DNA from: Escherichia coli
Lineage (GTDB): Bacteria > Pseudomonadota > Gammaproteobacteria > Enterobacterales > Enterobacteriaceae
Strand: one strand, 5' to 3'
DNA length: 64,000 bases
Assembly (NCBI RefSeq): GCF_003334765.1
Contig: NZ_QOWT01000002.1
The position numbers and the translations under genes are program-made. Below are positions 871 to 58,588 of this stretch, piece by piece. Positions within the stretch are counted from its first letter, which is position 1; every line of letters begins with the position of its first letter. The notes beneath the pieces are model-generated. The model saw nothing but the letters and a program-made list of their open reading frames with translations, ran no database searches and was not told where the DNA came from.

Positions 871-2522
871 TGAAATCGGTACGTTACCTTATCGGCCTCT
901 TCGCGTTTATTGCCTGCTATTACCTGTTACCGATCAGCACGCGTCTGCTCTGGCAACCCGATGAAACGCGTTATGCGGAAATCAGTCGAGAAATGCTGGC
1001 ATCCGGCGACTGGATTGTGCCCCATCTGTTAGGGCTACGTTATTTCGAAAAACCCATTGCCGGATACTGGATTAACAGCATTGGGCAATGGCTATTTGGC
1101 GCGAATAACTTTGGTGTGCGGGCAGGCGTTATCTTTGCGACCCTGTTAACTGCCGCGCTGGTGACCTGGTTTACTCTGCGCTTATGGCGCGATAAACGTC
1201 TGGCTCTACTCGCCACAGTAATTTATCTCTCATTGTTTATTGTCTATGCCATCGGCACTTATGCCGTGCTCGATCCGTTTATTGCATTCTGGCTGGTGGC
1301 GGGAATGTGCAGCTTCTGGCTGGCAATGCAGGCACAGACGTGGAAAGGCAAAAGCGCAGGATTTTTACTGCTGGGAATCACCTGCGGCATGGGGGTGATG
1401 ACCAAAGGTTTTCTCGCCCTTGCCGTGCCGGTATTAAGCGTGCTGCCATGGGTAGCGACGCAAAAACGCTGGAAAGATCTCTTTATTTACGGCTGGCTGG
1501 CGGTTATCAGTTGCGTACTGACGGTTCTCCCTTGGGGACTGGCGATAGCGCAGCGGGAGCCTAACTTCTGGCACTATTTTTTCTGGGTTGAGCATATTCA
1601 ACGCTTTGCACTGGATGATGCCCAACATAGAGCTCCGTTCTGGTACTACGTGCCGGTCATCATTGCCGGTAGCCTGCCGTGGCTGGGATTACTCCCCGGT
1701 GCACTGTACACAGGCTGGAAAAACCGCAAGCATTCCGCAACCGTCTATTTGTTGAGCTGGACGATAATGCCGCTGCTGTTTTTCTCCGTCGCTAAAGGTA
1801 AATTGCCCACCTATATTCTTTCCTGCTTTGCATCTCTGGCAATGCTGATGGCGCATTACGCTTTGCTGGCAGCAAAAAATAATCCTCTGGCGCTGCGGAT
1901 TAATGGCTGGATTAACATCGCTTTTGGCGTCACTGGCATTATTGCCACATTTGTGGTCTCCCCGTGGGGACCAATGAACACGCCGGTGTGGCAAACCTTC
2001 GAGAGCTATAAAGTCTTTTGTGCCTGGTCGATTTTTTCGCTATGGGCATTTTTCGGCTGGTACACCTTAACAAACGTCGAAAAGACCTGGCCTTTTGCCG
2101 CGCTTTGCCCGCTGGGGCTGGCGTTGCTGGTAGGATTTTCAATTCCTGACAGAGTTATGGAAGGAAAACATCCGCAATTTTTTGTCGAGATGACACAAGA
2201 ATCACTTCAGCCAAGCCGCTATATTCTTACTGATAGCGTCGGTGTTGCCGCAGGTCTGGCATGGAGCCTGCAACGCGATGACATCATCATGTATCGCCAG
2301 ACAGGTGAGTTGAAATACGGCCTTAATTATCCGGATGCGAAAGGGAGATTTGTCAGCGGTGATGAGTTCGCAAACTGGCTTAATCAACATCGTCAGGAGG
2401 GGATTATTACTCTCGTGCTTTCGGTTGACCGCGATGAAGATATCAACAGTCTCGCCATTCCGCCCGCAGATGCCATCGATCGTCAGGAGCGTCTGGTGCT
2501 GATTCAGTATCGTCCCAAATGA
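870..2522 (+). CDS. arnT: ArnT, undecaprenyl-phosphate 4-amino-4-deoxy-L-arabinose transferase (lipid A modification)
   Basis: 550-aa ORF, strongly hydrophobic multi-pass membrane protein; start overlaps arnD stop; operon context. Confidence 0.95.
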
Positions 2523-53697: not shown

Positions 53698-54471
53698 TTA
53701 TTTCAGCGATCCCTTAAGGAACCGTTGCAGACGAGGGCTTTGCGGGTTGCCAAATAACTGCTCCGGCGCGCCCTCTTCTTCTATTTTCCCCTGATGGAGG
53801 AAAATGACATGAGTAGAAACATGGCGAGCAAAGCCCATTTCGTGAGTCACTACCACCATGGTTTTCCCCTCTTCTGCCAGTTGCTGCATAATACGCAACA
53901 CTTCGCCTACCAGTTCAGGATCGAGCGCCGAGGTAGGTTCATCAAACAGTAAAACTTCCGGTTCCATCGCCAGCGCCCGCGCGATAGAAACACGCTGTTG
54001 CTGACCGCCGGAAAGATGCACCGGATATTTCCCCTGCGCACGTTCGTCTATCCCGACTTTTGCCAGATACTTCACCGCCCGCTCGCGCGCTTCCTGCTTG
54101 CTCAGGCCCAACACCTGAATCGGCGCTTCCATGACGTTTTCCAGCACCGTCATATGGCTCCAGAGATTGAAGTGCTGGAATACCATCGTCAGGCGTGTGC
54201 GCAGTAAGCGCAGTTGATTTTTATCGGCGACTTTGAGTTGACCGTCTTTGTCGCGCACCAGATTGATCGTCTGGCCATTGACCACGATCGACCCTTCACT
54301 CGGTTTTTCGAGGAAGTTAATGCAGCGCAGAAAGGTACTTTTCCCCGATCCCGACGATCCGATGATGCTTATTACATCTCCGGCATTCGCTTGCAGTGAT
54401 ACCCCTTTCAGCACTTCATGTTCGCCGTAGCGTTTGTGCAAATCGATAACGTTTAATTTATTCTCGGACAT
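53698..54471 (-). CDS. hisP: HisP, histidine/lysine-arginine-ornithine ABC transporter ATPase
   Basis: 257-aa ORF with Walker [10 protein letters not shown], signature LSGGQQQR, Walker [12 protein letters not shown]. Confidence 0.97.
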
Positions 54472-54478
54472 CGTATTC

Positions 54479-55195
54479 TCAGTGCGTTGAAGAAGGTTTC
54501 ACATGCTGCAACCAGCGTTTTTCCGCTCTGCGAAAGAGGCTGATCAGGACATAAGAGATGATTAAATAGAGCACCGCGGCAATGCCGAAGGCGGTAAAAG
54601 GTTGATACGTGGCGGCGTTAATATCGCGGGCTATTTTCAGCAGATCCGGCACCGTGGCAGTAAATGCCAACGCAGTAGAGTGCAGCATCAGGATCACTTC
54701 GTTGCTGTATGCCGGTAACGCAATACGCAGCGCAGAAGGCAAAATAATGCAGCGATACATTTTAAAAGTCGAGAAGCCATAGGCTCTGGCGGCTTCAATT
54801 TCCCCATGCGGAACCGAACGGATTGCCCCAGCAAAAATCTCGGTAGTGTAAGCGCAGGTGTTAAGCGTCAGCGCCAGCACGGTACAGTTCAGGCCACTGC
54901 GGAAGAAAGCGTTAAGGAATTCGGTTCCCTTAACAATCTCAAGCGTGTACATGCCGGAATAGAACACCAGCAACTGAACATACAGCGGCGTACCGCGAAA
55001 AATATAGGTAAATAACCAGATTGGAAACTGGATGTATTTATTACTGGAGACACGACCAATCGCCAGAAACAGCGCCAGGACTCCGCCTATCACTACCGAC
55101 AAAATAAGCAGCCACAGAGTGATCGCCACACCAGTAAAGCGATAACCGTCGGTCCACAGCAGCGGTTTCCAGTATTCATGTAAGATTTCGATCAC
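54479..55195 (-). CDS. hisM: HisM, ABC transporter permease
   Basis: 238-aa membrane protein; start overlaps hisQ stop by 4 nt. Confidence 0.95.
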
Positions 55196-55878
55196 AGGTC
55201 AGCCCTCTTCACACCCACGGAGTAGCGGCGCTCAAGGAACAGCAGCACACCATTGGAAACAGTGGTGAAAACCAGGTAAATCACGCCACAGACGATGGCG
55301 AAATAGAACGGTTCCCAGGTACTTTTGCCTGCCAGTTGGGTGGCTTTGACCACATCTTCCAGGCCGAGTAACGAAACCAGTGCGGTAGATTTGAGGATCA
55401 CCTGCCAGTTGTTGCCAATGCCTGGCAGGGCGTAACGCATCATCGACGGAAACATGATCCGCCGAAACACTTGCCCACGAGTAAAACCGAACGCCGTCGC
55501 CGCCTCTATATGTCCTTTCGGCACTGCCATAAAAGCACCACGGAACGTTTCGGTAAAATAAGCACCGTAGATAAAACCGAGAGTGATAATACCAGCGACC
55601 ATCGGATCGATATCAATCTGCCCGACGCCCATCGCCTCCGTCACCGTGTTTAGCGCAATCTGCAAACCGTAGAAAATCAGCAGCATCAACACTAAGTCCG
55701 GCACGCCACGAATCAGCGTGGTGTACCCTTCGAAAATCAGCCCCGAAAGCCGATTTTGCGAGAGCTTACCGCCAGCGCCAATTAAACCGATGATTACAGC
55801 GAGCACTACAGAGCTGATAGCCAGCTCCAGCGTGACGAGCGCACCCTGTAAAATAACACCTGAAAACCCATACAACAT
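55192..55878 (-). CDS. hisQ: HisQ, ABC transporter permease
   Basis: 228-aa membrane protein; operon context. Confidence 0.95.
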   Translation of the reverse strand: MLYGFSGVILQGALVTLELAISSVVLAVIIGLIGAGGKLSQNRLSGLIFEGYTTLIRGVPDLVLMLLIFYGLQIALNTVTEAMGVGQIDIDPMVAGIITLGFIYGAYFTETFRGAFMAVPKGHIEAATAFGFTRGQVFRRIMFPSMMRYALPGIGNNWQVILKSTALVSLLGLEDVVKATQLAGKSTWEPFYFAIVCGVIYLVFTTVSNGVLLFLERRYSVGVKRADL

Positions 55879-55967
55879 GCTGCCTGTCCTGTCGTGTGTG
55901 GTGAATTACCGCCTCTTGTCTCCCTCCGGTTACCCGAAGGGAGCGGGCTTTCTTTCACCGATGGCGA

Positions 55968-56750
55968 TTAGCCACCATAAACATCAAAATCGAAGTACTT
56001 TTTCGCTAATTTCTCGTAAGTACCGTCAGCGCGCATTTCGGCAAAGGCTTTGTTCAGTGCTTCGCGCAGTTCGTTATCTTCTTTACGCAGGCCCATGCCG
56101 GTCCCTACGCCAAACAGTTTTTCATCTTTAACAGACGGGCCACCGAATTTGTAATCTTTACCGACAGGTTGTTTGAGGAAACCTTCGCTGGCAGCGACCT
56201 CATCCTGGAACGCGGCATCAATACGTCCGGCAGTCAGGTCAGAATAAATGTTGTCCTGCCCCTGATACGAGACGATTTCAATGCCTTTTGGTGCCCAATG
56301 TTCATTACCGAACGTCTCCTGGGTGGTGCCCTGCAATACGCCTACCCGTTTGCCTTTCAGCGACTCGACTGTCGGCTGAATGTCAGAATTTTTCGCCACC
56401 ACCAAACGAGAATCGGCAGCGTACAGTTTGTCGGTGAAGGCTATTTCTTGCTGACGTTTTTCCGTAATGGAAAGCGATGACATGATGGCGTCAATCTTCT
56501 TCGCTTTTAAGGACGGGATTAACGCATCCAGCGGATTTTCGACAAACGTACATTGCGTATTGATGCGTTTGCATAATTCCTTTGCCAGATCGATATCGAA
56601 GCCAACCAGTTCGCCTTGTGAATTTTTTGATTCAAATGGCGCATAGGTCGGGTCGGTACCGATGCGGATGTTTTGCGGAATCGCAGCAAACGCCGCAGTT
56701 GCGCTGGAGAAGGCCAGAACCAGAGAGAGCGATAGCACCAGTTTTTTCAT
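55968..56750 (-). CDS. hisJ: HisJ, periplasmic histidine-binding protein
   Basis: 260-aa ORF with signal peptide; paralogous to adjacent argT. Confidence 0.95.
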
Positions 56751-56970
56751 AATGTCCTCAACTGACAGTCTTTTTATAGGGAATATTTACAGGTTTGTTA
56801 CACTTATCGTGCCATAAAATTGACCATCAAGGCAAAATATCCCGCCCCGTTAGACGTATTATTTTTCATTAAAAATGCTTAAGTATGCATTTCAATGCAC
56901 CACGATAGTGCAACAAACCTGGCGTGCACCATGATGATCATTCCATCAGGTACAGCTTCCCAGCGACGTA

Positions 56971-57753
56971 TCAGTCACCGTAGACATTAAAGTCGAAATA
57001 CTTTTTCGCCATCTTGTCGTAGGTGCCGTCCTGACGCAGCTCGCCAAGCGCCTTATTGAAGGCAGCCGTCAGTTCAGCATCATCTTTACGTAGCCCTACA
57101 CCGGTGCCATCACCGAAGTATTTTTTGTCTTTTACTGATGAGCCAGCAAAGGCGAAATCTTTACCAGCAGGTTGCTTGAGGAATCCTTCGCTGGCAGCAA
57201 CTTCATCTTGTAACGCAGCATCCAGACGTCCTGCAGCCAGATCGGAATAGACCAAATCCTGGTTGGCATAGGCCACCACATCCACGCCTTTACTACGCCA
57301 GGTCTCGTTAGCGTAAGCTTCCTGGGTTGATCCCTGCAGCACACCAACATGTTTACCTTTCAGTGAATCCAGCGTTGGCTGAATCGGTGAACCTTTGGCC
57401 GCAATCAAACGAGAATCTGCGGCGTACAGCTTGTCGGAGAAGGCAATCTCCTGCTGACGTTTATCGGTAATGGAAAGCGACGAAATAATAGCGTCGATTT
57501 TTTTCGCTTTCAGTGAGGGGATCAGCGCGTCAAAGTCACTGGCAACCCAGGTACATTTCACCTGCATCCGTTTGCACATCTCGTTACCGAGATCGATATC
57601 AAAGCCAACAAAATCACCTTTAGCATCTTTCGATGAGAACGGTGCGTAGGTGGTATCGGTTCCGATACGTACCGTCTCCGGTAGCGCCGCATAGCTGGAA
57701 GCCGCTGTGGAGAGACCGACTAACAAAGACAGAGCGAGAATCGACTTCTTCAT
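56971..57753 (-). CDS. argT: ArgT, periplasmic lysine/arginine/ornithine-binding protein
   Basis: 260-aa ORF with signal peptide; about 70% identical to HisJ by eye. Confidence 0.95.
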
Positions 57754-57821
57754 ACATAACCCTCAAGTGAAAATGGCTTTTTTATGTTGTGTATTGTGTT
57801 GTGTGTTTGCAGGCTCTTTCA

Positions 57822-57837
57822 TGCAGGTCTTATGCCA
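57822..57837 (-). promoter_or_regulatory. Candidate sigma-54 (-24/-12) promoter of argT
   Basis: Minus strand reads TGGCATAAGACCTGCA (GG-N10-GC spacing of the TGGCAC-N5-TTGCA consensus), about 70 bp upstream of the argT ATG. Confidence 0.6.
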
Positions 57838-57987
57838 TCTTGACGACAACAGTAACATTCAACGTTAAATATGTTAATAAGACGTTGCATTATTGTCCTG
57901 AAGTTGAAGATAGCAGGTATAGCGGTTGAATCGCAGCGTTTCGATTGAATGGCAGAAACAAAATGTCGAGGATTTGATCGCGGTTGC

Positions 57988-58010
57988 AAAATTGCCCTGA
58001 AACAGGGCAA
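57988..58010 (-). terminator. Hairpin downstream of ubiX (candidate terminator of cvpA-purF-ubiX)
   Basis: TTGCCCTG-AAA-CAGGGCAA stem followed on the minus strand by UUUUGCAA, 9 nt after the ubiX stop. Confidence 0.55.
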
Positions 58011-58018
58011 CAGCGGAG

Positions 58019-58588
58019 TTATGCGCCCTGCCAGCGGGCAAAGAGATCTTCAGGAAGGGTTATCGCAAACTGGTCAAGAACACGATTAACCGTCTGATTT
58101 ATCACATCATCAAGGGATTGCGGGCGATGATAAAACGCCGGAACGGGAGGCATAATCACCGCACCGATTTCTGCCGCCTGAGTCATTAAACGCAGATGGC
58201 CTAAGTGCAATGGTGTTTCACGCACGCAGAGCACCAACGGGCGACGCTCTTTCAGCACCACATCTGCCGCACGGGTCAGTAAGCCATCAGTATAGCTATG
58301 GACAATGCCGGAAAGGGTTTTGATTGAACAGGGTAAAATCACCATCCCCAGCGTCTGGAAAGAACCGGAAGAGATGCTGGCGGCAATATCGCGCGCATCG
58401 TGCGTGACATCGGCTAATGCCTGCACTTCGCGCAGAGAAAAATCCGTTTCGAGGGATAAGGTCTGGCGCGCTGCCTGGCTCATCACCAGATGCGTTTCGA
58501 TATCTGTGACATCGCGCAGAACCTGTAATAAGCGCACGCCATAAATCGCGCCGCTGGCACCGCTGATGCCTACAATGAGTCGTTTCAT
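58019..58588 (-). CDS. ubiX: UbiX, flavin prenyltransferase
   Basis: 189-aa flavoprotein-fold ORF starting MKRLIVGISGASGA; last gene of the cvpA-purF-ubiX unit. Confidence 0.95.
   Translation of the reverse strand: MKRLIVGISGASGAIYGVRLLQVLRDVTDIETHLVMSQAARQTLSLETDFSLREVQALADVTHDARDIAASISSGSFQTLGMVILPCSIKTLSGIVHSYTDGLLTRAADVVLKERRPLVLCVRETPLHLGHLRLMTQAAEIGAVIMPPVPAFYHRPQSLDDVINQTVNRVLDQFAITLPEDLFARWQGA

Follow-up and report, generated by a model that had tools for sequence, protein, structure and literature searches.

Among promoters transcribed by sigma-54 RNA polymerase, glnAp2 is the archetypal NtrC-activated example and carries paired NtrC sites. Another promoter of the NtrC regulon in Escherichia coli and Salmonella is argTp, which is named argTr in the Salmonella literature. 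The promoter region of the neighboring hisJ gene of Salmonella (dhuA) reportedly has an NtrC site and a nif-like −24/−12 sequence, in work attributed to Ames and Nikaido in 1985 and to Schmitz et al. in 1988. As in the argT–hisJ cluster, duplicated class II periplasmic binding proteins serving one ABC permease are found in the artJ/artI and artPQM genes; the art promoters differ in being controlled by sigma-70 and ArgR (and Lrp) and not by sigma-54 (PMC6640053).

The locus described here lies within a 64,000-nt stretch of E. coli DNA (the window) and is the same argTp locus. The ubiX-argT-hisJ-hisQMP stretch is 100% identical to that of E. coli K-12 over the 2401-bp region searched, argTp motif included, and the 17-mer of the promoter is the published site OS22. 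The gene cluster and its common permease, like the sigma-54 promoter and the dependence of that promoter on NtrC, are already documented and belong to textbook knowledge. Nothing in argTp differs from the known promoter, and the addition made by our comparison is that Escherichia is without the canonical NtrC site located 203 bp upstream in many other genera. argTp shares the −24 GG/−12 GC architecture of glnAp2, and in relatives of E. coli its two NtrC sites are ∼31 bp apart, like the paired glnAp2 sites. In E. coli, however, the upstream sites of argTp are missing or degenerate and lie farther away (around −190), and the strongest local NtrC site is found downstream of the gene. The region upstream of hisJ in the window resembles Salmonella dhuA in containing an NtrC palindrome, ARG boxes, and then TGGCAC-N5, but in Escherichia the −12 element reads GTGTA, no sigma-54 occupancy has been reported, and E. 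coli hisJ is described as driven by sigma-70 (PMC6640053).

The argT and hisJ paralogues

Both binding-protein genes are located on the minus strand, and each encodes 260 aa, as originally predicted. argT (56971–57753) encodes the periplasmic binding protein for lysine, arginine, and ornithine, and its open reading frame matches that of K-12 argT at 100% identity; the paralogue hisJ (55968–56750), coding for the histidine periplasmic binding protein, was assigned from its open reading frame and the K-12 annotation, as were hisQ, hisM, and hisP (53698–55878, minus strand), which constitute the shared membrane permease and ATPase. The names argT and hisJ are correct, being those used by RefSeq for the identical K-12 sequence, and the proteins passed the equivalog cut-offs of the NCBIfam models NF011586 (ArgT, 582.5 bits, cut-off 440) and NF011965 (HisJ, 599.4 bits, cut-off 459), neither protein reaching the threshold set for its paralogue. 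The ArtJ and ArtI models matched both proteins at 177–191 bits, under their cut-offs. The proposal that a single HisQMP permease serves both proteins is in line with the literature, in which HisQMP2 is the docking partner common to HisJ and ArgT (PMC6640053).

BLASTP alignment of HisJ with ArgT gave 175 identical residues of 259 (68%) with no gaps (E = 9e-139), and the two shared peptides of 15 and 14 residues quoted in the original prediction were found in both proteins. At the nucleotide level, fourfold-degenerate sites of the two genes are 37% identical and third positions 43.5%, and argT and hisJ occur in the same order in all 80 Enterobacteriaceae genomes that formed our comparative sample. 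Because synonymous sites are saturated and both genes are present in all 80 genomes, the suggested ancient tandem duplication is supported, and, judged from the sequences, the tandem pair consists of old paralogues. The identical peptide stretches could instead stem from recent gene conversion between the two genes, and not from purifying selection on an old duplicate; nucleotide identity does reach 82–87% in two segments, at gene positions 241–330 and 511–570. This is very unlikely, however, as the divergence at third positions and fourfold sites given above argues against it, and the two genes share no identical nucleotide stretch longer than 14 nt, a length that is below the permutation mean of 16 and is matched by 80% of codon shuffles. 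In 78 genomes the median paralogue identity was equal within a genome (0.701) and across genomes (0.695), and the segments deviating by >3 sd in this test were only six in number, none of them in Escherichia. Alignment of hisJ with argT thus revealed no detectable conversion tracts, and gene conversion between the tandem genes was rejected. Local alignment of the argT and hisJ promoter regions was no better than that of shuffled sequences, with the exception of the sigma-54 motif.

The sigma-54 promoter argTp

The argTp promoter, the 17-mer ATGGCATAAGACCTGCA at 57822–57838 on the minus strand, is backed by a matrix score, by conservation, and by published ChIP-seq and gSELEX data. Its core reads TGGCAT-AAGAC-CTGCA and is oriented toward argT, with the GG doublet at 57835–57836 (−24) and the GC doublet at 57823–57824 (−12) separated by the 10 bp characteristic of sigma-54 promoters. 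The sequence TGGCATAAGACCTGCA occurs once in the window (57822–57837, minus strand), 68 nt upstream of the argT ATG. The predicted start is 57811, 19 nt from the motif centre, which would give a 58-nt leader; no mapped argT transcription start was found in a literature search. A paper on an 'E. coli argT promoter', said to be by Hsu et al. from 1991, appears to deal with a tRNA gene that is also called argT, and was set aside.

When the window was searched with the loose consensus TGGCAC-N5-TTGCA, allowing up to two mismatches, 29 matches were found against 28.7 expected. Since the loose consensus was not enriched, it was replaced by a matrix trained on 41 ChIP-verified sigma-54 sites, from which argT was left out. 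With this matrix argTp scored 14.77 bits and ranked second among 127,968 window positions; it outscored 13 of the 41 training sites and lies within their range (8.7–21.7, median 16.1). Chance matches with this score are expected ∼1.3 times per 64 kb and ∼0.001 times per given 100-nt upstream stretch. The motif alone is therefore not decisive, and the assignment is decided by its position together with conservation and published sigma-54 occupancy. TGGCA-N7-TGC is kept in 80 of 80 Enterobacteriaceae loci, at 50–89 nt from the ATG, and the neighboring bases vary. In published sigma-54 ChIP-seq, site OS22 (motif centre 2425890, corresponding to window position 57830) is the same 17-mer, 58 nt from argT, with a signal 12-fold over threshold and a PSSM score of 9.457 on the scale of that paper, and an RpoN gSELEX peak (55–61%) was reported in the argT/ubiX spacer. 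The coordinate mapping was checked with ChIP site IS28 (arnT), which falls on a matrix match at 2256–2272. When the ChIP-seq paper appeared, the argT promoter was only 'predicted' in EcoCyc.

A further published observation concerns a 198-bp fragment running from 58009 to 57812, which gave the top GFP signal among the sigma-54 promoters compared on plasmids; the text consulted describes no test of rpoN or ntrC dependence for this fragment. argT is described as sigma-54/NtrC dependent and hisJQMP as controlled by sigma-70 and ArgR (PMC6640053). The −24/−12 promoter put forward in the original prediction is thus borne out, and the nitrogen (NtrC) control attributed to it agrees both with this literature and with the NtrC ChIP-seq signal. 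A chance resemblance to a −24/−12 element, with argT transcribed by sigma-70 RNA polymerase only, would fit the absence of enrichment of the loose consensus and the ∼1.3 equal-scoring sites expected per 64 kb. It is almost certainly not the case, as the GG and GC doublets are kept in all 80 genomes, sigma-54 binding was reported in vivo and in vitro, the NtrC/sigma-54 dependence of argT is published, and a simple sigma-70 scan found no consensus site in the argT spacer. Elsewhere that scan gave one intragenic promoter-like match.

NtrC-like sites on both sides of argT

A search of the E. coli ubiX–argT spacer for TGCACC-N5-GGTGCA returned no match with three or fewer mismatches. The best match had 4 mismatches of 12, a quality that, by our own estimate, chance alone would produce in a spacer of this length, and the earlier remark that no convincing NtrC sites are visible by eye upstream of argT holds. 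Relatives from many genera have NtrC sites with 0–2 mismatches at two constant distances upstream, 203 and 172 bp. The first of these, the canonical one, is present in Enterobacter, Klebsiella, Trabulsiella, Pseudocitrobacter, and others, and is deleted in all seven Escherichia sequences among the upstream regions compared. At the position of the second site, ∼171 bp ahead of the centre of the sigma-54 motif, E. coli has a perfect dyad, TGCCCTGTTTCAGGGCA, followed by TTTT (57993–58009, minus strand). This dyad is the four-mismatch match named above, and it aligns with the TGCGCC-N5-GGTGCA-type sites of Klebsiella and Raoultella. Folded as RNA, the dyad has an energy of −15.1 kcal/mol (z = −4.1) and looks like a terminator hairpin of ubiX; it was missed by a simple terminator scan because only four T residues follow. 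From its alignment to relatives, it is also a candidate site for NtrC binding. Published NtrC ChIP-seq at argT gave a weak, 5.4-fold signal that had been added by eye. The argTp fragment that is active on a plasmid begins exactly at the dyad end, 58009.

Between the dyad and the promoter lies an A/T-rich block, TGCAACGTCTTATTAACATATTTAACG (57863–57889, minus strand; approximately −52 to −78 from the predicted start), which is near-invariant over 25 genera and has variable flanks. It may serve as a putative DNA-bending or architectural site between enhancer and promoter; inspection of the block by eye for the IHF consensus found only a match with two mismatches.

The top match to the NtrC consensus is located on the other side of the gene, in the argT–hisJ spacer upstream of hisJ. 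This site, TGCACCACGATAGTGCA on the plus strand and TGCACTATCGTGGTGCA on the gene strand (56896–56912), is the sole match with one mismatch in the 64 kb, and an additional GGTGCA half-site is present at 56925–56930. It falls inside a strong published NtrC ChIP-seq peak (2424941–2425021, corresponding to 56881–56961 in the window; 23.7-fold), and NtrC binding here is taken from published data. Most relatives also have NtrC-like sites in this spacer. A pair of 18-mers resembling ARG boxes, with a 3-bp spacer between them (AATGCATACTTAAGCATT ttt AATGAAAAATAATACGTC; 56853–56891, minus strand), was set by eye within a highly conserved block and is probably the operator for ArgR at the hisJ promoter. 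The layout agrees with the published description of this operator, in which a 3-bp gap separates two boxes of 18 bp in front of the −35 (PMC6640053); the −10 element of the published sigma-70 hisJ promoter was not placed with confidence in the window sequence. A sigma-54-like element, ATGGCACGATAAGTGTA (56799–56815, minus strand), is located 48 nt upstream of hisJ, ∼97 bp downstream of the NtrC site, and scored 12.80 bits, the eighth-best value in the window. Its −24 half is perfect, with TGGCAC invariant in 24 genera. In Escherichia the −12 half has decayed, reading GTGTA in place of CTGCA. Citrobacter (ATGGCACGATAACTGCA), Franconibacter, and Superficieibacter retain an intact −12 TGCA, and there the element scores 17.5–18.4 bits. 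Published sigma-54 ChIP and gSELEX datasets report no peak at this element in E. coli. The original prediction made no mention of the strong NtrC site or the second sigma-54-like element on the hisJ side.

NtrC enhancers act over kilobase distances and from downstream, as known from work on glnAp2. The NtrC cluster at 56896–56930 could be the working enhancer of argTp in Escherichia, acting by DNA looping from ∼925 bp downstream, with the weak ChIP signal at argTp as a sign of the loop. The deletion of the canonical 203-bp site in seven of seven Escherichia sequences speaks for this arrangement, as do the fact that the window has just one good match to the NtrC consensus and that it lies downstream of argT, the 23.7-fold peak there compared with 5.4-fold at argTp, and the lack of reported sigma-54 binding at E. 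coli hisJ that the site might serve. We nevertheless consider it unlikely. The 198-bp upstream fragment was highly active on a plasmid without the downstream sites, and relatives that have upstream sites also keep those in the argT–hisJ spacer, so that the two sets coexist and form no complementary pattern. In addition, the ∼97 bp to the sigma-54-like element of hisJ is a classical distance, suggesting that the sites belong to hisJ. An evolutionary account of the same features would have both copies once under NtrC/sigma-54 control, followed in Escherichia by deletion of the argT NtrC site and decay of the hisJ −12 element, leaving an 'orphan' enhancer to act on argTp ∼925 bp away or on the sigma-70 hisJ promoter or read-through transcription; taken as a whole, this account appears doubtful.

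Transcript features and proposed regulation

Two spacers of the cluster contain C/A-rich stretches. The argT leader includes CAAACACACAACACAATACACAACAT (57783–57808, minus strand), a block that is conserved in relatives and is the predicted pairing target expected for the GcvB R1 seed. In agreement with this, argT is listed among the R1 targets of GcvB, having been verified in Salmonella, with conservation in E. coli, and hisQ is a verified R1 target in E. coli (PMC9299463). The 92-nt hisJ–hisQ spacer folds with −33.2 kcal/mol (z = −4.2) and contains a stable hairpin (55911–55948, minus strand) followed by a C/A-rich stretch (55879–55903) just before hisQ. Folding of the argT 3′ spacer gave no significant structure (z = −0.9), and an Rfam scan of 55600–58150 with E up to 1 gave no match.

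The preferred reading is that the argT-hisJQMP cluster consists of old paralogues that share HisQMP2, with argT driven by a sigma-54 promoter fired by NtrC, and we regard it as very probably correct. The present analysis provides the gene identities and paralogy, the lack of gene conversion, the quality and conservation of the motif, and the positions of NtrC-like sites. Papers provide the occupancy by sigma-54 and NtrC, the dependence on NtrC, and the sharing of HisQMP; the DNA used by NtrC to activate E. coli argTp and the read-through into hisJ are what we infer. ArgT brings lysine, arginine, and ornithine, and HisJ histidine, to the single HisQMP2 ABC importer. In the proposed mechanism, RNA polymerase–sigma-54 would wait on argTp as a closed complex, which phosphorylated NtrC would remodel upon nitrogen limitation, so that the promoter fires. 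With no terminator-like structure after argT, some of this transcription probably reads on into hisJQMP. In addition, hisJ has a control region of its own, comprising the strong NtrC site, the ArgR boxes, and the published sigma-70 promoter.

The comparison leaves a modest addition: Escherichia and its relatives arrange the enhancers of a classic NtrC-regulon promoter differently, and the strongest local NtrC site of E. coli adjoins no sigma-54-bound promoter. The locus represents no new kind of system, and the differences in enhancer layout would make a small case of the rewiring of enhancer-dependent promoters after gene duplication.

Age and independence of the hisJ/argT gene pair

Six open reading frames (ORFs) occupy 53698–58588 on the minus strand: a 189-aa ORF (58019–58588) comes first, followed by argT (56971–57753) and hisJ (55968–56750), each encoding 260 aa, and by three ORFs of 228, 238 and 257 aa. 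A megablast search found the region 55700–58100 in every one of 5,426 complete E. coli genomes, with 100% identity in K-12 MG1655, for which the RefSeq annotation gives ubiX, argT, hisJ, hisQ, hisM and hisP. The two binding proteins belong to separate NCBIfam equivalogs (HisJ, 599 bits with a cut-off of 459; ArgT, 582 bits with a cut-off of 440), and neither reaches the cut-off of the model for the other. Their BLASTP alignment contains 175/259 identities (68%) and no gaps, and both peptide stretches quoted in the original prediction are found in HisJ and ArgT alike. This is in agreement with its description of tandem 260-aa paralogues, and the single HisQMP permease that it assigned to both is also stated in the literature, according to which HisQMP2 is used by HisJ and ArgT (PMC6640053).

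In an ungapped DNA alignment, argT and hisJ are 68.7% identical (77%, 86% and 43.5% at codon positions 1, 2 and 3, and 37% at fourfold-degenerate sites in identical codons), so silent sites are essentially saturated. The comparative set comprised 80 Enterobacteriaceae loci from a scan of genome contigs (Escherichia, Salmonella, Citrobacter, Enterobacter, Klebsiella, Raoultella, Kosakonia, Pluralibacter and others), and the order ubiX-argT-hisJ-hisQ is kept in all 80. Among the 78 genomes with ungapped argT and hisJ, median identity between the two genes was 0.701 within a genome and 0.695 between argT of one genome and hisJ of another (orthologue identity, ∼0.80–0.82). The shared order and the equal identities within and between genomes indicate that the duplication is older than the sampled genera, as the term 'ancient' had implied, and that the copies evolve independently. 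Gene conversion would offer another explanation of the identity, but the alignments revealed no conversion tracts: the longest identical nucleotide run is 14, whereas codon-column shuffles gave a mean of 16 and did as well in 80% of cases. Only six sliding 90-nt windows across the 78 genomes exceeded 3 sd, none of them in Escherichia. We therefore regard conversion as very improbable and effectively excluded; the sequence comparison points to selection as the reason for the identical peptides.

The sigma-54 promoter of argT

The sequence TGGCATAAGACCTGCA occurs once in the window, at 57822–57837 on the minus strand. Matches to a loose sigma-54 consensus (≤2 mismatches) showed no enrichment in the window (29 observed, 28.7 expected), so a log-odds matrix was built instead from the remaining 41 intergenic sense sites reported by a sigma-54 ChIP-seq study (PMC4591121), with the argT site excluded, and applied to both strands of the window (127,968 positions). 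The argT 17-mer ATGGCATAAGACCTGCA scored 14.77 bits, ranking second and outscoring 13 of the 41 training sites. In first-order Markov surrogates, matches of this quality arise 1.3 times per 64 kb, and the chance of one in a given 100-nt upstream stretch is 0.001. In 80/80 loci, the homologous element gives the highest forward-strand score of the ubiX-argT spacer (12.8–17.2 bits, 50–89 nt from the ATG); TGGCA and TGC are kept in it while adjoining bases vary. The identical 17-mer is ChIP-seq site OS22 (motif centre 2425890, window 57830; 12-fold above threshold, 58 nt from argT, EcoCyc status 'predicted'; PMC4591121), the argT/ubiX spacer was selected by the RpoN holoenzyme in gSELEX, and argT has been described as sigma-54/NtrC dependent (PMC6640053). 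The proposed sigma-54 promoter is thus upheld, and a chance resemblance to the motif is so remote as to be effectively excluded. With the predicted start at 57811, the GC doublet has its C at −12; the literature searched contained no mapped argT start.

Three further blocks of the spacer are strongly conserved among relatives: GCGATCAAATCCTCGACATTT (57961–57981, minus strand), which includes GATC and is near-invariant in ∼25 genera, CTGCTATCTTC, and TGCAAC-N5-ATTAACATATTTAACG (57863–57889, minus strand; about −52 to −78), where the non-coding TGCAACGTCTTATTAACATATTTAACG is near-invariant in ∼25 genera.

Elsewhere in the window, the third-ranking match, CTGGCATGGAGCCTGCA (2256–2272, plus strand; 14.75 bits), is located in a 550-aa ORF and corresponds to IS28, an intragenic site in arnT from the published sigma-54 ChIP-seq data. 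This agreement validates both the matrix and the coordinate offset (window = U00096.2 minus 2,368,060). The top score, 15.25 bits, belongs to CTGGCACTATTTTTTCT (1568–1584, plus strand) in the same ORF; this match is probably a false positive, because it lacks the −12 GC and has no entry in the main text of the sigma-54 ChIP-seq paper. A weak RpoN gSELEX peak (31–32%) is reported at 2429072 in the cvpA/dedD spacer (window ∼61012), and the spacer upstream of cvpA contained none of the top 25 matrix matches.

Read-through and post-transcriptional layers

No significant RNA structure is predicted for the spacer 3′ of argT (z = −0.9), which makes read-through from argTp into hisJQMP plausible; argT-hisJQMP is an operon entry in the gSELEX tables. 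A GGCCCGG-N4-CCGGGCC hairpin directly after the argT stop is present in Klebsiella, Raoultella, Pluralibacter and Kosakonia (loci L029, L046, L051, L057 and others) and absent in Escherichia, so read-through from argT into hisJ may differ among genera. Between hisJ and hisQ, a spacer with a folding energy of −33 kcal/mol (z = −4.2) contains a very stable hairpin at 55911–55948 (minus strand). This is probably the intercistronic element to which the Salmonella literature attributes the control of hisJ expression relative to hisQMP. Rfam gave no match in the region. Minus-strand C/A-rich stretches in the argT leader (57783–57808) and just before hisQ, after the spacer hairpin (55879–55903), fit the published control by the R1 seed of the small RNA GcvB, for which argT is a listed target and hisQ a verified one (PMC9299463).

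The search for NtrC sites upstream of argT and hisJ

A consensus scan of the ubiX-argT spacer found no match to TGCACC-N5-GGTGCA at ≤3 mismatches, which bears out the earlier failure to see convincing NtrC sites there by eye. The best match is a perfect dyad, TGCCCTGTTTCAGGGCA (57993–58009, minus strand), with 4/12 mismatches, a quality that we estimate to arise by chance about once per two stretches of spacer length. Because it forms a hairpin (−15.1 kcal/mol, z = −4.1) followed by UUUU just after ubiX, the dyad also looks like a ubiX terminator. In other genera, NtrC-like sites with 0–2 mismatches occupy two fixed positions relative to the sigma-54 motif centre, 203 and 172 bp upstream of it and 31 bp from each other. 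Enterobacter, Trabulsiella, Pseudocitrobacter, Silvania and K. pneumoniae have the 203 site (in E. cloacae it is perfect, TGCACCTGCAGGGTGCA); in Salmonella and Citrobacter it is degenerate, and it is deleted in all Escherichia sequences, in which the end of ubiX directly precedes the dyad. The 172 position corresponds to the E. coli dyad and carries an NtrC-like site in Klebsiella and Raoultella (loci L028, L029, L051 and others). NtrC ChIP-seq in nitrogen-starved cells gave a 5.4-fold signal, added by eye, at 2425861–2425941 (window 57801–57881, 'argT'; PMC4066584).

The sole one-mismatch NtrC match in the 64 kb (56896–56912) lies in the argT-hisJ spacer and not upstream of argT, where the original prediction had searched. 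It is accompanied by an additional GGTGCA (56925–56930) and lies under a strong, 23.7-fold NtrC ChIP-seq peak (2424941–2425021, window 56881–56961, 'hisJQMP'; PMC4066584). Downstream of it are two ARG-box-like 18-mers separated by 3 bp (56853–56891) and a sigma-54-like element, ATGGCACGATAAGTGTA (56799–56815, minus strand; 12.8 bits, rank 8). This element is 48 nt upstream of the hisJ start codon, at a distance of ∼97 bp from the NtrC site. Across 24 genera, the −24 half of this element (TGGCAC) is invariant and the −12 half is variable: CTGCA in Citrobacter, Franconibacter and Superficieibacter (17.5–18.4 bits), CCGCA in Salmonella, CGGCA in Enterobacter and GTGTA in Escherichia. No sigma-54 peak at hisJ in E. 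coli was found in the ChIP-seq tables, supplements and gSELEX lists searched, and hisJQMP is reported to have a sigma-70 promoter repressed by ArgR (PMC6640053). The simplest reading is that the element is an ancestral NtrC/sigma-54 promoter weakened in Escherichia, where the sigma-70 promoter is reported to be at work.

Under nitrogen limitation, NtrC would activate argTp and thereby argT transcription, and in E. coli it could act through the degenerate dyad at ∼−190, from solution at high NtrC concentration, or from the strong downstream cluster. We consider it unlikely that this cluster, ∼925 bp downstream, serves argTp as an enhancer, because in a published plasmid comparison of sigma-54 promoters a 198-bp fragment (58009 to 57812) gave the highest GFP signal, an argument that these 198 upstream bp are sufficient. 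Taken together, we hold with high confidence that argTp is a genuine sigma-54 promoter, which NtrC activates when nitrogen is limiting, before the first of two old paralogues with one permease. The original observation is confirmed and its interpretation supported, and this finding was already known. What is mildly new is the comparative picture only, namely enhancer loss upstream of argT in Escherichia and decay of the −12 element upstream of hisJ.
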